This document shows positions 4,198 to 61,982 of a DNA stretch of 64,000 bases, piece by piece. The notes under the pieces were generated by a model, which made no database searches, was not told the DNA's origin, and worked only from the letters and a program-made list of their open reading frames with translations. Position 1 is the first letter of the stretch. Every line of letters starts with the position of its first letter. The stretch lies in the sequence record NC_024794.1; one strand, written 5' to 3'. The DNA comes from Escherichia phage vB_EcoM_PhAPEC2. The translations under genes and the position numbers were made by a program.

Positions 4198-4226
4198 ACT
4201 ATAACATAGCCCTATCTTGTTGTAAA
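4198..4226 (-). promoter_or_regulatory. Early promoter cassette (PeSL-like)
   Basis: Same architecture and near-identical sequence to 2903-2931 and 11747-11775. Confidence 0.6.
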
Positions 4227-4231
4227 CTGTT

Positions 4232-7040: not shown

Positions 7041-7268
7041 TTATTTTTTAATCAAATTGACATAAAACTTGGCGTCTTCCGGGTGCATGCCTTCACAGTA
7101 TTCTTCAACCATGAACTTCTTAACAGCTTCATAAGGACCACTCAGATTAAGCTCAGTTGTCCAGAACTTGGAATCTTGGGCTGAATCGATACGAACTTCA
7201 GGGTGACGGTTGCGAATAACTTCTTCGGTATATTCATAATCAACGACATCAATACTAACTTTAGCCAT
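7041..7268 (-). CDS. Hypothetical early protein (75 aa)
   Basis: Preceded by early promoter cassette 7299-7327 and Shine-Dalgarno AGAGGAG. Confidence 0.5.
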   Translation of the reverse strand: MAKVSIDVVDYEYTEEVIRNRHPEVRIDSAQDSKFWTTELNLSGPYEAVKKFMVEEYCEGMHPEDAKFYVNLIKK

Positions 7269-7298
7269 TTTGTTTCTCCTCTGTAGTTGATAAGTCTA

Positions 7299-7327
7299 TA
7301 GTATCACCATCCTTGGTGCTTGTACAT
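7299..7327 (-). promoter_or_regulatory. Early promoter cassette (PeSL-like)
   Basis: Minus strand: TGTACA, 17 bp, TGaTACTAT; leader duplicated at 44504-44535. Confidence 0.55.
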
Positions 7328-8003: not shown

Positions 8004-8032
8004 ATAGTACCACGGAAGAACAGGGATGTAAA
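8004..8032 (-). promoter_or_regulatory. Early promoter cassette
   Basis: Minus strand: TTTACA, 17 bp, TGgTACTAT. Confidence 0.55.
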
Positions 8033-8101
8033 CAGTTTTGTGAAAAAATTTTTAAAAAGTTCTGGGGAATTCTAGGGCAGGGAGAGGAAAGGCCTAGATA
8101 C

Positions 8102-11746: not shown

Positions 11747-11775
11747 ACTATAACATAGTCCTATCGTGTTGTAAA
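11747..11775 (-). promoter_or_regulatory. Early promoter cassette (PeSL-like)
   Basis: Third copy of the TAGGACTA palindrome cassette: TTTACA, 17 bp, TATAGT. Confidence 0.6.
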
Positions 11776-11779
11776 CTAC

Positions 11780-12067
11780 TTACAGAAGAGTTTTTGCAAT
11801 AATTTTAAGCTGAGCTACAGAAATATGCTTAGCTTTAAACAGTGCGGTCTCTTCAGCCGGAGAGATAACAATAGTAGCGCCGTCTTTCTTAGCAGACCAT
11901 CCGTCCCCTAAGTAAACAGTACCTTTTACTTCTTCACCGTCAACCAGACTAATCATTGGTTTACCCTCACGTCCTTTATTTGTTTTAATAACTTCAGAAG
12001 TAAGGGATGCTTCGGTCAGAGTAGAAACGTTAGCAACAGGTGATATAAATTCTTTATAGGTTTTCAT
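11780..12067 (-). CDS. Internal protein I-like (capsid-targeted), 95 aa
   Basis: N-terminus MKTYKEFIS... with LTE at residues 17-19; same size and position as T4 ipI next to 57B; own early promoter at 12102-12130. Confidence 0.6.
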   Translation of the reverse strand: MKTYKEFISPVANVSTLTEASLTSEVIKTNKGREGKPMISLVDGEEVKGTVYLGDGWSAKKDGATIVISPAEETALFKAKHISVAQLKIIAKTLL

Positions 12068-12101: not shown

Positions 12102-12130
12102 ATAGTATCACACCATCATCCTTATGTAAA
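12102..12130 (-). promoter_or_regulatory. Early promoter cassette upstream of ipI-like gene
   Basis: Minus strand: TTTACA, 17 bp, TGaTACTAT, with inverted repeat AGGATGAT/ATCATCCT. Confidence 0.55.
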
Positions 12131-12144
12131 CTGTTTTGTGAAAA

Positions 12145-42604: not shown

Positions 42605-44173
42605 ATGACTACTATCAAAACTAAAGCTCAGCTCGTAGACAAATGGAAAGAACTGCTGGAAGGTGAAGGCCTGCCGGAAATCGCTAATAGCAAGCAGGCT
42701 ATTATCGCTAAAATCTTCGAAAACCAGGAAAAAGATTTCGAAGTATCCCCTGAATATAAAGACGAGAAAATCGCTCAGGCATTTGGTTCTTTCTTGACCG
42801 AAGCTGAAATTGGTGGTGACCACGGTTATAACGCTCAGAACATCGCAGCAGGTCAAACCTCTGGTGCAGTAACCCAAATTGGGCCGGCAGTTATGGGTAT
42901 GGTTCGTCGTGCTATTCCTAATCTGATCGCTTTTGATATTTGTGGTGTTCAGCCTATGAACAGCCCTACCGGTCAGGTATTTGCTCTCCGTGCAGTATAT
43001 GGTAAAGACCCTATCGCTGCTGGCGCTAAAGAAGCTTTCCATCCGATGTATGCCCCAGACGCGATGTTCTCTGGACAGGGTGCTGCTAAGAAATTCCCAG
43101 CTCTGGCTGCCGACACTACTACTGTTGTAGGTGATATCTATACTCACTTCTTCCAAGAAACTGGTACTGTATATCTGCAAGCTTCTGCTGTCGTAACACT
43201 TGATTCTAGTGCGACTGATGCAGCTAAATTAGATGCCGAAGTTAAGAAACAAATGGAAGCTGGTGCACTGGTAGAAATCGCTGAAGGTATGGCTACTTCT
43301 ATCGCTGAACTCCAGGAAGGTTTCAATGGTTCTACCGATAATCCATGGAATGAAATGGGCTTCCGTATCGATAAACAAGTTATCGAAGCTAAATCTCGCC
43401 AGCTGAAAGCTGCTTACTCTATCGAATTAGCACAAGACCTCCGTGCAGTACACGGTATGGATGCTGATGCTGAACTGAGCGGTATTCTGGCTACAGAAAT
43501 TATGCTAGAAATCAACCGTGAAGTTGTTGATTGGATTAACTACTCGGCACAGGTTGGTAAATCTGGTATGACCCTGACTCCGGGTTCTAAAGCTGGCGTA
43601 TTTGACTTCCAGGACCCGATTGATATCCGTGGTGCTCGTTGGGCCGGTGAAAGCTTTAAATCTCTATTGTTCCAGATTGATAAAGAAGCAGTTGAAATTG
43701 CTCGTCAAACCGGTCGTGGTGAAGGTAACTTCATTATCGCTTCCCGTAACGTAGTTAACGTACTGGCTTCAGTTGATACTGGTATTTCTTACGCTGCACA
43801 GGGTCTGGCTTCTGGTTTTAATACCGACACTACTAAGTCTGTATTTGCAGGTGTACTTGGTGGTAAATACCGCGTATACATCGACCAGTATGCTAAACAG
43901 GATTACTTCACCGTTGGTTACAAAGGCGCTAACGAAATGGATGCAGGTATTTACTATGCTCCTTACGTTGCACTTACCCCACTGCGTGGTTCCGATCCTA
44001 AGAACTTCCAGCCGGTAATGGGCTTTAAAACTCGTTACGGTATCGGTGTTAACCCGTTTGCTGAAAGTTCCCTGCAGGCTCCAGGTGCTCGCATCCAGTC
44101 CGGTATGCCGTCTATCCTGAACAGCCTTGGTAAGAACGCTTACTTCCGCCGTGTATATGTAAAAGGCATCTAA
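42605..44173 (+). CDS. 23: Major capsid protein gp23
   Basis: 522 aa; MTTIKTKAQLVDKWKELLEGEGLPEIANSKQ... Confidence 0.97.
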   Translation: MTTIKTKAQLVDKWKELLEGEGLPEIANSKQAIIAKIFENQEKDFEVSPEYKDEKIAQAFGSFLTEAEIGGDHGYNAQNIAAGQTSGAVTQIGPAVMGMVRRAIPNLIAFDICGVQPMNSPTGQVFALRAVYGKDPIAAGAKEAFHPMYAPDAMFSGQGAAKKFPALAADTTTVVGDIYTHFFQETGTVYLQASAVVTLDSSATDAAKLDAEVKKQMEAGALVEIAEGMATSIAELQEGFNGSTDNPWNEMGFRIDKQVIEAKSRQLKAAYSIELAQDLRAVHGMDADAELSGILATEIMLEINREVVDWINYSAQVGKSGMTLTPGSKAGVFDFQDPIDIRGARWAGESFKSLLFQIDKEAVEIARQTGRGEGNFIIASRNVVNVLASVDTGISYAAQGLASGFNTDTTKSVFAGVLGGKYRVYIDQYAKQDYFTVGYKGANEMDAGIYYAPYVALTPLRGSDPKNFQPVMGFKTRYGIGVNPFAESSLQAPGARIQSGMPSILNSLGKNAYFRRVYVKGI

Positions 44174-44197
44174 TCTTAATTGATTAAATCTTATTTT

Positions 44198-44215
44198 GGG
44201 AGACTTCGGTCTCCC
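44198..44215 (+). terminator. Stem-loop GGGAGAC-UUCG-GUCUCCC after gp23
   Basis: Same 18-nt hairpin as after gp8, followed by ATTTTT. Confidence 0.65.
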
Positions 44216-44225
44216 ATTTTTGGTT

Positions 44226-44495
44226 TTATTTCTGTGCAATTTCGATGTAAGTTTTCAAAATATTTTGCCAATTAGGCATACCTTCTTGGACATATGCTGG
44301 AGAACCGTCTTTGTTTTTGAATGATGCAAGTTTATCAGTGGCCCAATAACCTTTAGCTCGAGCTTCAGAATCAACTTTCATCCATACTTTGTTGAAGGCA
44401 TTACCATTAACTTTTGCACCATATTTTTCTACTAACTTAACTGCTTCAGCTTCCAGAACTTTTAAAGTATCTCGTAAGAAACGTGCTTTAGTCAT
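44226..44495 (-). CDS. Hypothetical early protein (89 aa) inserted between gp23 and gp24
   Basis: Minus-strand ORF with GAGGAG Shine-Dalgarno and its own early promoter cassette (44526-44554); T4 carries segD at this position. Confidence 0.55.
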   Translation of the reverse strand: MTKARFLRDTLKVLEAEAVKLVEKYGAKVNGNAFNKVWMKVDSEARAKGYWATDKLASFKNKDGSPAYVQEGMPNWQNILKTYIEIAQK

Positions 44496-44525
44496 TTTGT
44501 TTACTCCTCTGTAGTTGATAAGTCT

Positions 44526-44554
44526 ATAGTATCACATACCAAATACGTTGTAAA
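44526..44554 (-). promoter_or_regulatory. Early promoter cassette (sigma70-like, PeSL-like)
   Basis: Minus strand: TTTACA, 17 bp, TGnTACTAT; 32 nt (44504-44535) identical to 7277-7308. Confidence 0.6.
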
Positions 44555-44561
44555 CAATCTT

Positions 44562-44569
44562 TATAAATA
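44562..44569 (+). promoter_or_regulatory. Late promoter (TATAAATA) for gp24
   Basis: Consensus 28 nt upstream of the gp24 ATG. Confidence 0.6.
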
Positions 44570-44596
44570 ATCTATATCACATAAGGAAAAAATGCA

Positions 44597-45880
44597 ATGA
44601 GTAAAATCCAAAAATTATTGCGTGAATCTACAACGTCTACTAGCAACTCAATTGGTCGCCCAAATCTCGTTGCTTTGACTCGCGCTACGACTAAATTAAT
44701 ATATTCTGACATTGTAGCAACACAAAGAACTAATCAACCTGTTGCTGCTTTTTATGGTATCAAATATCTTAACCCAGATAACGAATTCACATTTAAAACT
44801 GGTGCTACTTATGCGGGTGAAGTTGGATATGTAGACCGAGAAAAAATTACTGAGCTCACAGAAGAATCAAAAGTCACACTAAATAAAGGCGATTTTTTCA
44901 AATATAATAATATCGTCTATAAAGTGTTAGAAGATACACCATTTGCAGATATTCAAGAAAGTGATCTAGAATTAGCTCTTCAGATTGCAGTCGTTCATTT
45001 AAAGGTACGGTTATTTTCAGATGCAGCGGTAACAAGCAAATTTGAAAGCTCTGGTAGCGAAATTTCTGATGCAAGATTCCAGATTAATAAATGGCAAACT
45101 TCAGTCAAATCTCGTAAACTTAAAACCGGCCTCACGGTTGAATTAGCGCAAGATTTGGAAGCGAATGGATTTGATGCCCCTAACTTTTTAGAAGATTTGC
45201 TTGCTACTGAAATGGCTGATGAAATTAATAAAGATATTCTTCAGTCTTTAATTACTGTATCGAAACGTTATAAAGTTACTGGAATTACTGACACTGGATT
45301 TATTGACTTGAGCTATGCATCCGCTCCAGAAGCAGGTCGTTCATTATATCGAATGGTGTGTGAAATGGTATCACACATTCAAAAAGAGACAACTTATACT
45401 GCGACGTTTTGTGTAGCCTCAGCTCGTGCAGCTGCTATTCTTGCTGCTTCTGGTTGGTTAAAACATAAGCCAGAAGATGACAAGTATCTTTCACAAAATG
45501 CTTATGGATTCTTGGCAAATGGATTACCTCTTTACTGCGATACTAACAGTCCGTTAGATTATGTTATTGTGGGTGTTGTAGAAAATATCGGCGAAAAAGA
45601 AATTGTAGGGTCCATCTTTTATGCTCCATACACTGAAGGAGTAGATTTAGATGACCCGGAACATGTTGGTGCTTTTAAAGTTGTAGTTGATCCAGAAAGC
45701 TTGCAACCGTCTATCGGATTACTGGTTAGATATGCTTTATCAGCAAATCCTTACACAGTAGCAAAAGACGAAAAAGAAGCGAGAATAATTGATGGCGGGG
45801 ACATGGATAAAATGGCAGGACGTTCAGACTTGTCTGTTTTACTCGGTGTTAAATTGCCTAAAATTATTATAGATGAATAA
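44597..45880 (+). CDS. 24: Capsid vertex protein gp24
   Basis: 427 aa as in T4; gp23-like fold. Confidence 0.95.
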   Translation: MSKIQKLLRESTTSTSNSIGRPNLVALTRATTKLIYSDIVATQRTNQPVAAFYGIKYLNPDNEFTFKTGATYAGEVGYVDREKITELTEESKVTLNKGDFFKYNNIVYKVLEDTPFADIQESDLELALQIAVVHLKVRLFSDAAVTSKFESSGSEISDARFQINKWQTSVKSRKLKTGLTVELAQDLEANGFDAPNFLEDLLATEMADEINKDILQSLITVSKRYKVTGITDTGFIDLSYASAPEAGRSLYRMVCEMVSHIQKETTYTATFCVASARAAAILAASGWLKHKPEDDKYLSQNAYGFLANGLPLYCDTNSPLDYVIVGVVENIGEKEIVGSIFYAPYTEGVDLDDPEHVGAFKVVVDPESLQPSIGLLVRYALSANPYTVAKDEKEARIIDGGDMDKMAGRSDLSVLLGVKLPKIIIDE

Positions 45881-45890
45881 ACAAAAAAAA

Positions 45891-45906
45891 GGGACCGTAA
45901 GGTCCC
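45891..45906. terminator. Bidirectional terminator between gp24 and rnlB
   Basis: GGGACC-GUAA-GGUCCC hairpin flanked by an A-run and a T-run. Confidence 0.6.
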
Positions 45907-45913
45907 TTTTTCG

Positions 45914-46912
45914 TTATGATACTAATTCAATCCATGCAGGACGCAGAACATCTTGCACCATTCGGACTAATTCTTTCTTAACAAGATTCGGATTATCAGA
46001 TGATGTTAATACAATACCTTCACGAGAAGTTTCTTCCAGAATATCTTGAACAGTTAATCCCATCACTTTGCCAAAATCTTTTGGCGTTACAGCCCCAATC
46101 TTAGAAATCACATTATTAACACGATTTAATGTAACATAACAAGCTAGAACATCAAGCAGGTTTTTGTCAATTTCTGTTAATGGAACCTGAGTTTTAATAG
46201 GCTTATCAGACTTTTTCTTTTCACTGAATTTAGAGTTCTTGCACTTAATAGCTACACGAGTACCGTTTGGCAGCCATTTAGGGAAACAGGGCTTCAGAAC
46301 ATAACCTTCTGCCGTATTATCGCCAATAACATTAGCATCAAATACACAATTATTTGCTTCTACAAGGTCTTCTGACGCAGTAGCATTATAAGCGGCTAAG
46401 ACAGAATCAAGGTCGTTTGGAATCATGATAAGAGAATCAAATGTTCCACGTCCAAGCATTGGTGCCATTTTAAAACCGAATTCATTACAGAAATCTTGCA
46501 TTTCGTAATCGGTCAAATACGTATTATCACCACTTTCTGTATTGATAAGGATATCGAACACATAAAAATCTTTTTCACCGTAGTCAACACCTTTCTGGAT
46601 TCCACCACCAGCGAATTCACCGAATACTTGATATGATACGGCTCGAGCTGTGTACATGAATTCCTGAACGGCTTTAATAGCTTTATCATACTTCTTGAGT
46701 ACGATTTCATAACCATAAAAATCTTCTGCTGGAAGAATAGGGCCTGTGCGCTTGGCGCATGTGACGTTGTCACGTTCAATTATTAACGAGAAGTTAGTCC
46801 CATGGATTTTCTCACGTGCTACCCAAACACCAGTAGTCAAACCATTAGTGTAGAGTTTTTCAATAAACTTAGAGTTGTAGTGGTTTTCAAGACTGCTGTA
46901 TTTCTTAAACAT
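45914..46912 (-). CDS. rnlB: RNA ligase 2
   Basis: [21 protein letters not shown]...[10 protein letters not shown] (KxHGxN lysine); near-identical to T4 Rnl2. Confidence 0.95.
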
Positions 46913-59865: not shown

Positions 59866-59894
59866 ATAGTATCACACATCCATGTGTTTGTAAA
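59866..59894 (-). promoter_or_regulatory. Early promoter cassette (PeSL-like)
   Basis: Minus strand: TTTACA, 17 bp, TGaTACTAT; spacer related to the cassette at 12102-12130. Confidence 0.55.
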
Positions 59895-61982
59895 CTATCC
59901 TTGGACAAATTTAAACGGAACTGATTCTAAATCCATTAAAGATGCTAACAATTTCAATCCTTTAGGAGCACTAGTTTTTTCTACAAATGAGGAGAACGAT
60001 ACCGGCTCATCTGATTCGATTTCACCCGCCATAGCAACCACCTCGCCTGTTTCCATGAGAACATCGCCGTCGTAAATGACAGCTTCATCCAACTGGTCCG
60101 AGGACATGACTTCAGCTTGAATAAATTTAAGGTTGGATTCTAAACCTGCACCGGTGTCAGATGACGCATCTGTAATTTTATTTATCTGCAAGAGAATGCC
60201 TCTAGGCAAAATAATTTCTTGCTCATTAGGGTGATTACTCAACTGTCCTGGATAAATCACGTTAACTTTATGAGCGCCATCAATAGCCCATCCAACGTTA
60301 ACACGGATTTGTTCTGGTGCATGCATAGCTGTTCTTACTTGACTCGGAGAAATAGTAACACCTTCGTCATTATTATCAATGTTAAGCTCTTTGCGAACTT
60401 CTTCAGGAGCAAGTCCAAGGGCAACGTTCTCTTTAAACCCACCGAAAATAATAGGAGCTAGTGAAGTGGAAACATAGTTTCTGAAGTAGAATACCTTATT
60501 TTTAACCATTGCTTCGTAAATAGGCATTCTGATAGACTGAGCTCTATATAACGTTAGTCCTTCAGGTAAACGGTCTCCATTTAAAAACGCCGAATCAAGA
60601 CCATCAATAGCGCGTTTAACTTCATCTTCATCCGCAACATCATAAAAATCTGGTTTATAACGACCTAACAACATATTATTGATATCGGTATACGCAGAAG
60701 AGGCATATTCACGAATAGCTCGTTTTTCAGCAACAGAGTATTGTTTAGGGTCCCGATTCATTGTTATATTAAAGGTGCCTTTAGCCGATTCTCGTGCATA
60801 AGTATACATCACATTAGACAAGAACGCTGATTTACGTTGTTTCCAAGTTTTTTCAGATACTTCAGCTAAAACGTCGTCAGCCAGTTGGAAATTATCTCGT
60901 CTAAAATCTTCAAACCATTCGTCTTTAATAGAGTCTGCAATTTCATTTGCAGCTTCAACAAAAGCAGCTAATGCTTTAACAGATGTTGTTTTTTCAGTTT
61001 TAATTTTCTTAGCAAACTTTTCTAAAGTTGGTTTAATAACACTACCATAAGAAACTTCATCAGCAAATCTAAAGGATTCATCAATACGATTATAAATCTT
61101 ATTTTCGATATCAGCAACTAAAGTGCCTTTTGCTGTGGATGATGCTTGGGCTAGTACGATTTCATATGCTTCAGGAAGTAATTCGGCTGTAGCCGGGCCA
61201 CTAACTTCTTTAGCAGAATTTTCGTATTTCTGGAATAACTCACCTTCTTGGCGGTCAGCTTCTAAAGATTGGCTTGCGGCAATAGCGCGCCGAGAAATTT
61301 TAGTACGAGCAATAACAGGCTTATCTTTACGTTTTTCTTCTACAGCAGCAATAGAACCAGCGATAGCCGTTTCTTTGGTGACCTTTTCGCCAGTCTTTTT
61401 ACTCACATAAACTTCGCCAACATCAGAATCTACTTTCGTGTACAACTCTGTGTTAATGTTAGGGATGCCTTTAATATCTTCAATGTTGGCATTTTTACGA
61501 ACCATCATCACATAGGTGTGTTTACCTGTGAATTGATACATTGCAGACAATACTTTAAAACGACCACCGGTTTTAGTAGAAACTAAACGAGCAAGAAGAG
61601 TTTGAAGTTGTTGTCCGCGTCCTTTCAATTTCTTGGTAGGGAATCGGAACAGAACTGCATCCATACGAAGAGCTTTAACCTGTTCATATACCGTATTGAA
61701 AATGGTGTTGATTGCATCAATAGGAGCAGGACCAAGGCCATTTTTCAATTCAGCGAGATTACCCTTTTCAGACAGACTCATAATAACAACATGAGCGTAT
61801 TTGTCGCCAAGTTTAACTTGTTTTACAGCGTCGCCTTCGGAAAGGTAAGAGAATAAACGAACTACGATGTTTGTATCGATATCACCAATTTTCCAGACTT
61901 GTGGAACTTTAGCTTTAGGGTTCAAATTGACGACAGGAAGACTGCCTTCAGATTCAAACACTTCATTTAATTGTTCAGACAT
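59895..61982 (-). CDS. alt: ADP-ribosyltransferase Alt
   Basis: 695 aa between 54 and 30 as in T4; R-S-E fingerprint (LYRAQ, YVSTSLAP, EQEIILP). Confidence 0.8.
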   Translation of the reverse strand: MSEQLNEVFESEGSLPVVNLNPKAKVPQVWKIGDIDTNIVVRLFSYLSEGDAVKQVKLGDKYAHVVIMSLSEKGNLAELKNGLGPAPIDAINTIFNTVYEQVKALRMDAVLFRFPTKKLKGRGQQLQTLLARLVSTKTGGRFKVLSAMYQFTGKHTYVMMVRKNANIEDIKGIPNINTELYTKVDSDVGEVYVSKKTGEKVTKETAIAGSIAAVEEKRKDKPVIARTKISRRAIAASQSLEADRQEGELFQKYENSAKEVSGPATAELLPEAYEIVLAQASSTAKGTLVADIENKIYNRIDESFRFADEVSYGSVIKPTLEKFAKKIKTEKTTSVKALAAFVEAANEIADSIKDEWFEDFRRDNFQLADDVLAEVSEKTWKQRKSAFLSNVMYTYARESAKGTFNITMNRDPKQYSVAEKRAIREYASSAYTDINNMLLGRYKPDFYDVADEDEVKRAIDGLDSAFLNGDRLPEGLTLYRAQSIRMPIYEAMVKNKVFYFRNYVSTSLAPIIFGGFKENVALGLAPEEVRKELNIDNNDEGVTISPSQVRTAMHAPEQIRVNVGWAIDGAHKVNVIYPGQLSNHPNEQEIILPRGILLQINKITDASSDTGAGLESNLKFIQAEVMSSDQLDEAVIYDGDVLMETGEVVAMAGEIESDEPVSFSSFVEKTSAPKGLKLLASLMDLESVPFKFVQG

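Follow-up and report, generated by a model that had tools for sequence, protein, structure and literature searches.

The gap between the genes for the major capsid protein (gene 23) and the capsid vertex protein (gene 24) of Escherichia phage vB_EcoM_PhAPEC2 holds a short open reading frame that faces the other way, and this raises the question of what a small gene, oriented antisense to the late head genes, does at this place. An earlier note on the same DNA had read it as an early cargo gene embedded in the late structural operon and as a likely host-takeover or anti-defence factor. We analysed a stretch of 64,000 nt from the sequence record NC_024794.1 (hereafter, the window). The phage is a Mosigvirus (RB69-like, T4-type), and the 551 bases around the locus are 99.8% identical to those of vB_EcoM_NBG1, phi25-307 and others. 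The elements of the locus are as follows.

42605-44173 (+): gene 23, major capsid protein, 522 aa, left flank (from the ORF list and the NBG1 and RB69 annotation)
44197-44216 (+): intrinsic terminator hairpin of gene 23, TGGGAGAC-TTCG-GTCTCCCA followed by a T-run; 8-bp stem, UUCG loop, G+C-rich
44226-44495 (-): 89-aa ORF (MTKARFLRDTLKVLEAEAV...), 10.1 kDa, pI 9.6, PHROG 6003 family
44486-44535 (-): 50-nt module (-10 box, leader, Shine-Dalgarno, first codons), repeated with 96% identity at 7259-7307 (-)
44504-44509 (-): Shine-Dalgarno GAGGAG, 8 nt 5' of the small-gene ATG, read from the sequence
44526-44554 (-): early-type sigma-70 promoter; -35 box TTTACA at 44554-44549, TG at 44534-44533, -10 box TACTAT at 44531-44526, spacer of 17 nt
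44562-44569 (+): late promoter of gene 24, TATAAATA, 28 nt before the gene 24 ATG
44597-45880 (+): gene 24, capsid vertex protein gp24, 427 aa, right flank of the slot

The intergenic gap covers exactly 44174-44596 (423 nt), as the earlier note had given it, and the minus-strand ORF and the gene 24 late promoter lie where they had been placed; the gene 23 terminator, proposed at 44198-44215, was found at 44197-44216. The hairpin folds at -16.8 kcal/mol (z -4.05, fold computation), and the same hairpin is kept downstream of JS98-type small genes. Read on the minus strand it is followed by AAAATAAG, without a U-run, thus it is not an intrinsic terminator for the transcript of the small gene, and the gap hairpin analysis found no intrinsic terminator after the ORF on the ORF's own strand. 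The late promoter of gene 24 and the -35 box of the early promoter stand back to back, and the former is present in all compared phages, including those in which the gap is empty. Since the gap holds a terminator and, for gene 24, a late promoter of its own, genes 23 and 24 do not form one operon here; of the phrase "embedded in the late structural operon", the antisense orientation to late head genes stands and the single operon does not. An Rfam search of the gap returned noise-level matches only. At its other end gene 24 (+) converges with the RNA ligase 2 gene rnlB (-, 45914-46912) at about 45877-45916, almost without spacer, and the NBG1 annotation places overlapping terminators on both strands at the equivalent gene 24/rnlB junction.

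Judging from its sequence and that of its relatives, the ORF is almost certainly a genuine protein gene. Its product matches the PHROG 6003 profile over its full length (E 2.1e-45, residues 1-89 on positions 1-90 of the 90 of the profile), and the gene is a plain member of that family, with no difference in slot, strand, promoter or terminator. By tblastn, members were found in 238 of 50,697 phage records, 119 of them at 80-100% identity and 119 below 60%, with at least 80% of the query covered in 236 of the 238; the ORF is hence not peculiar to one genome. JS98 (Dhakavirus) and VR7 (Gaprivervirus) carry ORFs of 88-93 aa, 34-37% identical, in the 23-24 gap, likewise on the opposite strand, and the homologues of the two genera keep the same slot and orientation at 30-38% identity. 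In an alignment of 15 diverse members, 84-93 aa in length, residues M1, K3, F6, G31, N32, N35 and Q70 are invariant. The dN/dS ratio is 0.07-0.14 in pairs with unsaturated dS (JS98, 04086, LF82-3) and about 0.15 between the window and the 61% identical homologue P0006, a pair whose dS is near saturation; between the two allele classes dS is saturated and the ratio is thus unusable. The GGAG of the Shine-Dalgarno is kept in all homologous upstream regions compared. GC3 of the small gene is 0.23, equal to that of gene 24, and the gene is thus no recent foreign arrival.

In the 238 GenBank records the family is annotated almost throughout as "hypothetical protein" (annotated relatives are NBG1 gp180, JS98 orf173, VR7ORF190c and RB69ORF188c+189c). 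It is thus a family already catalogued as hypothetical in more than 200 genomes, and its kind is that of the non-essential early ORFans of T4-type phages. A literature search by family locus tags found no mention of it. Two members, P0006 (JGI) and H65 (phage EAWsc9), are likely mis-annotated, bearing the names "NADPH-dependent curcumin reductase CurA" and "glycosyl hydrolase family 25"; profile searches gave no support to either name.

An early promoter cassette had also been claimed at the locus. A sigma-70-type site with an extended -10 box is indeed present, and it belongs to a class of motifs that stand before small ORFs. The extended motif, GTTTACA-N14-TGN-TAYWAT, occurs in seven copies in the 64-kb window, against 0.13 expected, and all seven are on the minus strand, each 17-43 nt 5' of the ATG of a minus-strand ORF of 68-101 aa. 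Besides the copy in the gap, these are:

2903-2932, 4198-4227, 8004-8033, 11747-11776, 12102-12131 and 59866-59895 (-): six further copies of the early-promoter motif, each just 5' of a small ORF

A stem-loop of 9-11 bp was found around the -10 box in four of these sister promoters (2903, 4198, 11747 and 12102; z -2.1 to -4.1), and none in the small gene's own promoter (fold of 44516-44565 on the minus strand, -1.2 kcal/mol, z +0.64). The eight homologous loci compared, and the region before T4 segD, all keep the -35 and -10 hexamers and their 17-nt spacing, while the sequence of the spacer is free to vary, a pattern that amounts to a phylogenetic footprint; the TG is kept in all compared loci but VR7. 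In T4 (NC_000866, record positions about 107233-107300; locus L005, 4234-4300) the site upstream of segD reads TTTACA-17-TATTAT with TG, and in the BLAST comparison T4 and the window become homologous again from position 44548 of the window, within the -35 box. The small-gene promoter, TTTACA-17-TACTAT with TG, also fits the published consensus of the T4/PST early promoter cassettes, TTTACW-N17-TAYWAT (PMC4122927). As to segD itself, a 2010 review reported no specific promoter for it in T4 and guessed its transcript levels to be very low (PMC2988022), and the supplement of a time-resolved omics study of 2022 lists segD RNA as early and the protein as middle, with measurable protein intensities (PMC9697503). 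Given the class of its promoter and the early RNA of T4 segD behind the same promoter architecture, the small gene is probably transcribed early in infection.

The arrangement recalls the PeSLs, early promoter/stem-loop cassettes that flank non-essential ORFans in T4-type phages (Arbiol et al. 2010, PMC2839356; Comeau et al. 2014, PMC4122927). As in PeSLs, the cassette of the window has a sigma-70-type early promoter, an AT-rich upstream region and a Shine-Dalgarno with start codon at its 3' end, it adjoins a boundary of insertion or replacement (empty gaps in some phages, replacement in LF82-3 and T4), and a module of it is partly repeated elsewhere in the genome. Unlike the published PeSLs, which the four sister promoters resemble in this respect, the promoter of the small gene has no stem-loop of its own, the sole stem-loop of the cassette being the gene 23 terminator downstream of the ORF, thus making the cassette only partly a PeSL; it also sits in a conserved structural block, where PeSLs are said to be rarer. 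The copy of the 50-nt module at 7259-7307 precedes a 75-aa ORF (MAKVSIDVVDYEYTEE...; 7041-7268, minus strand) and has a different -35 box, TGTACA. It is possible that this repeat is a substrate for recombination between promoter cassettes, and short repeats of such kind have been proposed to mediate modular shuffling (PMC2839356).

Comparison of the 23-24 region across T4-like phages, which the earlier note had recommended, showed the small gene to be an insertion relative to gaps of only 81-87 bp. Gaps of this size, with no annotated gene, are found in RB32 (Tequatrovirus), EnA02 (Karamvirus), Klebsiella phage Roth20 and PMBT1 (Slopekvirus), and the two that were read (RB32 and EnA02) contain the terminator hairpin and the late-promoter box only. 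The occurrence of such empty gaps in other T4-like genera marks the slot as an insertion hot spot. One Krischvirus phage has three small same-strand ORFs in the gap; T4, T6, PST and some others have segD there in antisense orientation, so that the statement that T4 carries segD at this position is correct, down to the gap and the opposite strand. The free-standing GIY-YIG homing endonuclease gene segD of T4 shares with the small gene the slot, the antisense orientation and the promoter type, back to back with the gene 24 late promoter. The 89-aa protein differs from it in being unrelated in sequence, in having no GIY-YIG or other nuclease motif, and in being encoded separately from the SegD homologue of LF82-3.

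Indeed, the small gene and segD are not alternatives in the slot, since some phages carry both in tandem. In LF82-3 (Mosigvirus) and 04086 (Dhakavirus) the small ORF is followed, 3 nt on, by a SegD homologue 57% identical to T4 SegD; homologues of the LF82-3 type are present in about 38 phage records, and in both of the two inspected the SegD gene directly follows the small gene within one gap. On the two sides of the slot LF82-3 matches the window at 97% and 96% identity, while window positions 44230-44503 (the ORF and 8 nt of leader) are replaced by a JS98-type allele, whose product is 31-32% identical to the protein of the window, together with segD. Conversely, a window-type allele (61% identical) was found in a phage whose gene 24 is duplicated, like that of JS98 and VR7. 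Taken from sequence comparison, the several states of the slot and the swaps of alleles between backbones indicate that it behaves as a cassette-exchange site, with alleles exchanged between phage genera. A tandem duplicate of gene 24 (24a/24b) lies beside the slot in Dhakavirus and Gaprivervirus (JS98, locus L002; VR7, locus L003; also L009 and L020); the window has a single copy.

The gene is split in two in the RB69 reference (RB69ORF188c and RB69ORF189c; NC_004928, record positions 109291-109531; locus L006, 6292-6532) by two indels of 1 bp each, one an insertion and one a deletion, near which substitutions cluster; this is either a real pseudogene in a laboratory stock or the result of errors in a sequence of the 2003 era. 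Truncated copies occur in phages mogra and 310Ecol104PP, and T4 and many genera have no copy at all. With the split, the truncations and the absence from T4, the sequences indicate a gene that is dispensable for growth. It is also fast-evolving and patchy in its distribution.

A search of 1.84 billion representative proteins with the family HMM gave nine matches, all of which, after removals, are small phage proteins. Removed were P0020, a 160-aa chimera from a 701-nt contig, and the giant Ig-like repeat proteins P0022 (E 1e-15) and P0024 (E 5e-7), whose scores are sums of 9-11 singly insignificant repeats. Membership in Big_2 (bacterial Ig-like) was likewise rejected, as each of those 9-11 repeats scores 2-12 bits and the AlphaFold2 model of the protein is mainly helical; the two cases call for caution with apparently strong E-values of repeat proteins in whole-library HMM searches. 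The most distant members (P0021, P0023, P0026, P0027 and ABPH49) lie outside T4-like phages, mostly amid long arrays of small ORFs that are unannotated and point the same way, in the Vequintavirinae phage ABPH49 and in unclassified metagenomic contigs; one of them follows tail genes on a contig with lambda J-like tail-tip genes. A scan of IMG/VR loci returned only T4-like genomes already known.

The small gene might owe its persistence chiefly to a segD-type mobile cassette, as its passenger or partner: linked to the slot of a homing endonuclease, it would be carried along by co-conversion in homing, or by marker exclusion, and would bring the phage little or nothing of its own, or else it would modulate SegD. 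T4 segD stands behind the same promoter architecture, in a promoter region partly alignable with that of the window, the tandem genes of LF82-3 and 04086 lie within 3 nt of each other in the same orientation, and the divergent allele and segD of LF82-3 replace exactly the ORF interval of the Mosigvirus backbone, as co-conversion predicts. However, about 200 of the 238 records carry the small gene without a close SegD homologue, the ORF is intact and under purifying selection even though most of its carriers have no segD, and no endonuclease gene adjoins the distant members in non-T4 phages. We therefore consider this explanation unlikely as a whole, although the persistence of the gene may in part reflect hitch-hiking with segD, or recombination at the slot, rather than a benefit for the phage.

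What the protein does was addressed, as the earlier note had proposed, by profile-HMM searches and structure prediction, which returned a confident small fold and no function. The AlphaFold2 model, built with 14 sequences in the alignment (pLDDT 88.7, pTM 0.75), has a helix at 3-25, a second helix at 31-48, a beta-hairpin at 56-60/66-70 and a third helix at 76-88, and an independent BFVD model of a 31% identical relative superposes on it with a TM of 0.77. The protein is hydrophilic, of 10 kDa, and has no Cys and no His. A conserved polar patch is formed by N30-G31-N32-x-x-N35, S57 and Q70, in the loop between helices 1 and 2 and in the hairpin. No catalytic motif was found in the 89-aa protein, and neither Pfam nor NCBIfam gave a match to a GIY-YIG domain; the earlier statement that it contains no nuclease motif was borne out, with no Pfam family above threshold. 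Pfam, NCBIfam and PADLOC scans of the protein and its relatives (15 members) returned sub-threshold noise and no recurrent family: DUF4859, at E 0.003, is below the cut-off of that family, and among the PADLOC anti-phage defence profiles the window protein has no match and two relatives have matches at noise level only. The profile search of PDB sequences gave no significant match, Foldseek gave no match at E < 0.1 against PDB, and against BFVD it retrieved a family member only.

Some of these properties would suit a nucleic-acid-binding regulator, that is, a protein that binds phage or host DNA or RNA and modulates early transcription or translation. The pI is basic, 9.2-9.9, in all examined members but P0021 (8.0), the helix-helix-hairpin topology recalls a winged helix, and winged-helix domains (ORC2 C-terminal, DnaD N-terminal, Cdt1 middle and an archaeal regulator) are among the best, non-significant Foldseek matches in PDB. 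Those matches are nevertheless at noise level (E > 0.3, probability at most 0.18, TM about 0.2-0.25), Pfam shows no match to any HTH family, and the invariant residues are Asn, Gly, Gln and Ser instead of Arg or Lys, which leaves a regulator of this type improbable.

The best explanation overall, which we prefer tentatively and hold at close to even strength, is that the locus is a self-contained early cassette coding for a small binding effector. The cassette would consist of a sigma-70-type early promoter, a strong ribosome-binding site and the 89-aa ORF, inserted antisense between the terminator of gene 23 and the late promoter of gene 24. Host RNA polymerase would transcribe it in the first minutes of infection, and its product would be a small, basic, soluble and non-enzymatic protein of predicted helix-helix-beta-hairpin-helix fold, which would bind and block a component of the host, or of host defence, stoichiometrically and early, as do further small, variable early genes of the T-even phages. 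The gene itself would move between phage genera as a cassette, sometimes together with segD. A size of 10 kDa, a basic pI and no Pfam, NCBIfam or PADLOC family favour a binder rather than an enzyme; these same features of the protein, together with the absence of a catalytic motif, the early promoter, dispensability, fast divergence, patchy distribution and mobility, make a binding effector the best-supported function. That it acts early against a host or defence component is, by this reasoning from analogy and context, a serious possibility, if somewhat short of an even one; as to the host-takeover or anti-defence role proposed in the earlier note, Pfam, PHROG and PDB searches and the literature offered no homology, fold match or paper that bears on it. 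T-even phages are known for variable small early counter-defence genes, such as ipI, arn, dmd and tifA. The gene of the window would resemble them in being small, early-type, dispensable, patchy and fast-diverging; it has no similarity to them in sequence or fold, and capsid targeting of the IPI type is absent.

Capsid targeting is relevant because the position of the gene might suggest a role in the head, either in assisting gp23/gp24 assembly or as an internal protein that, like T4 IPI, is packaged and then injected together with the DNA. The T4 internal proteins (IPI, IPII and IPIII) have an N-terminal capsid-targeting consensus resembling MKTYQEFIAE. The 89-aa protein begins with MTKARFLRDT, which is unlike such a sequence, and its identity as an internal protein was thus rejected. 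The conserved 23-24 position in three genera, the small size and basic charge shared with T4 internal proteins, and a very weak PHROG match to an "internal virion protein" family (E 0.09) speak for the head; against it, the promoter belongs to the early class and the ORF has no exact TATAAATA directed towards it, the gene is missing from most T4-like phages with the same capsid genes, and the distant members are found in unrelated contexts, so that we regard a head-related role as very unlikely. Elsewhere in the window, a 95-aa ORF at 11780-12067 (-), lying behind an early-promoter motif, begins with MKTYKEFISP..., a T4-type capsid-targeting sequence, and is probably an internal-protein (IP) gene.

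Least probable of all, to the point of being hardly credible, is that the ORF is non-functional and that an antisense early transcript or the promoter-terminator architecture is what matters, as might be supposed from early transcripts that may read antisense into gene 23, there being no terminator on the ORF strand, and from a slot that takes unrelated cargo (T4 segD) behind the same promoter type, but the frame is kept with its invariant residues at 30-38% protein identity across genera, dN/dS is far below 1, the Shine-Dalgarno is strong, the structure prediction is confident, and the many related phages with an empty gap need no antisense RNA there.

Returning to the early binding effector, a more far-reaching form of it is possible, although we lean against it as a whole: the family may represent a new class of small early effectors, with a previously undescribed fold, that inhibit a specific E. 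coli defence or host function and circulate, as a promoter-equipped cassette, among T4-like, Vequintavirinae-like and other coliphages, sometimes with SegD. On this view an arms race, fought against different targets in the host, could be the reason why the alleles fall into two classes that diverge so deeply, the RB69 type and the JS98 type.

Whatever the small protein does, the locus illustrates cleanly, in natural genomes, how cassettes are exchanged at one fixed position within a conserved block of capsid genes; the slot may be empty, or occupied by the small gene, by the small gene and segD, or by segD alone. It also indicates a conserved sigma-70-type promoter for T4 segD, where the 2010 review had none; these gains are modest and of specialist interest. 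Should the small protein turn out to act in counter-defence or host takeover, the catalogue of the phage-host arms race would gain a new small-protein fold and a target, and differences in host range among therapeutic Mosigvirus and Dhakavirus phages would be easier to explain.
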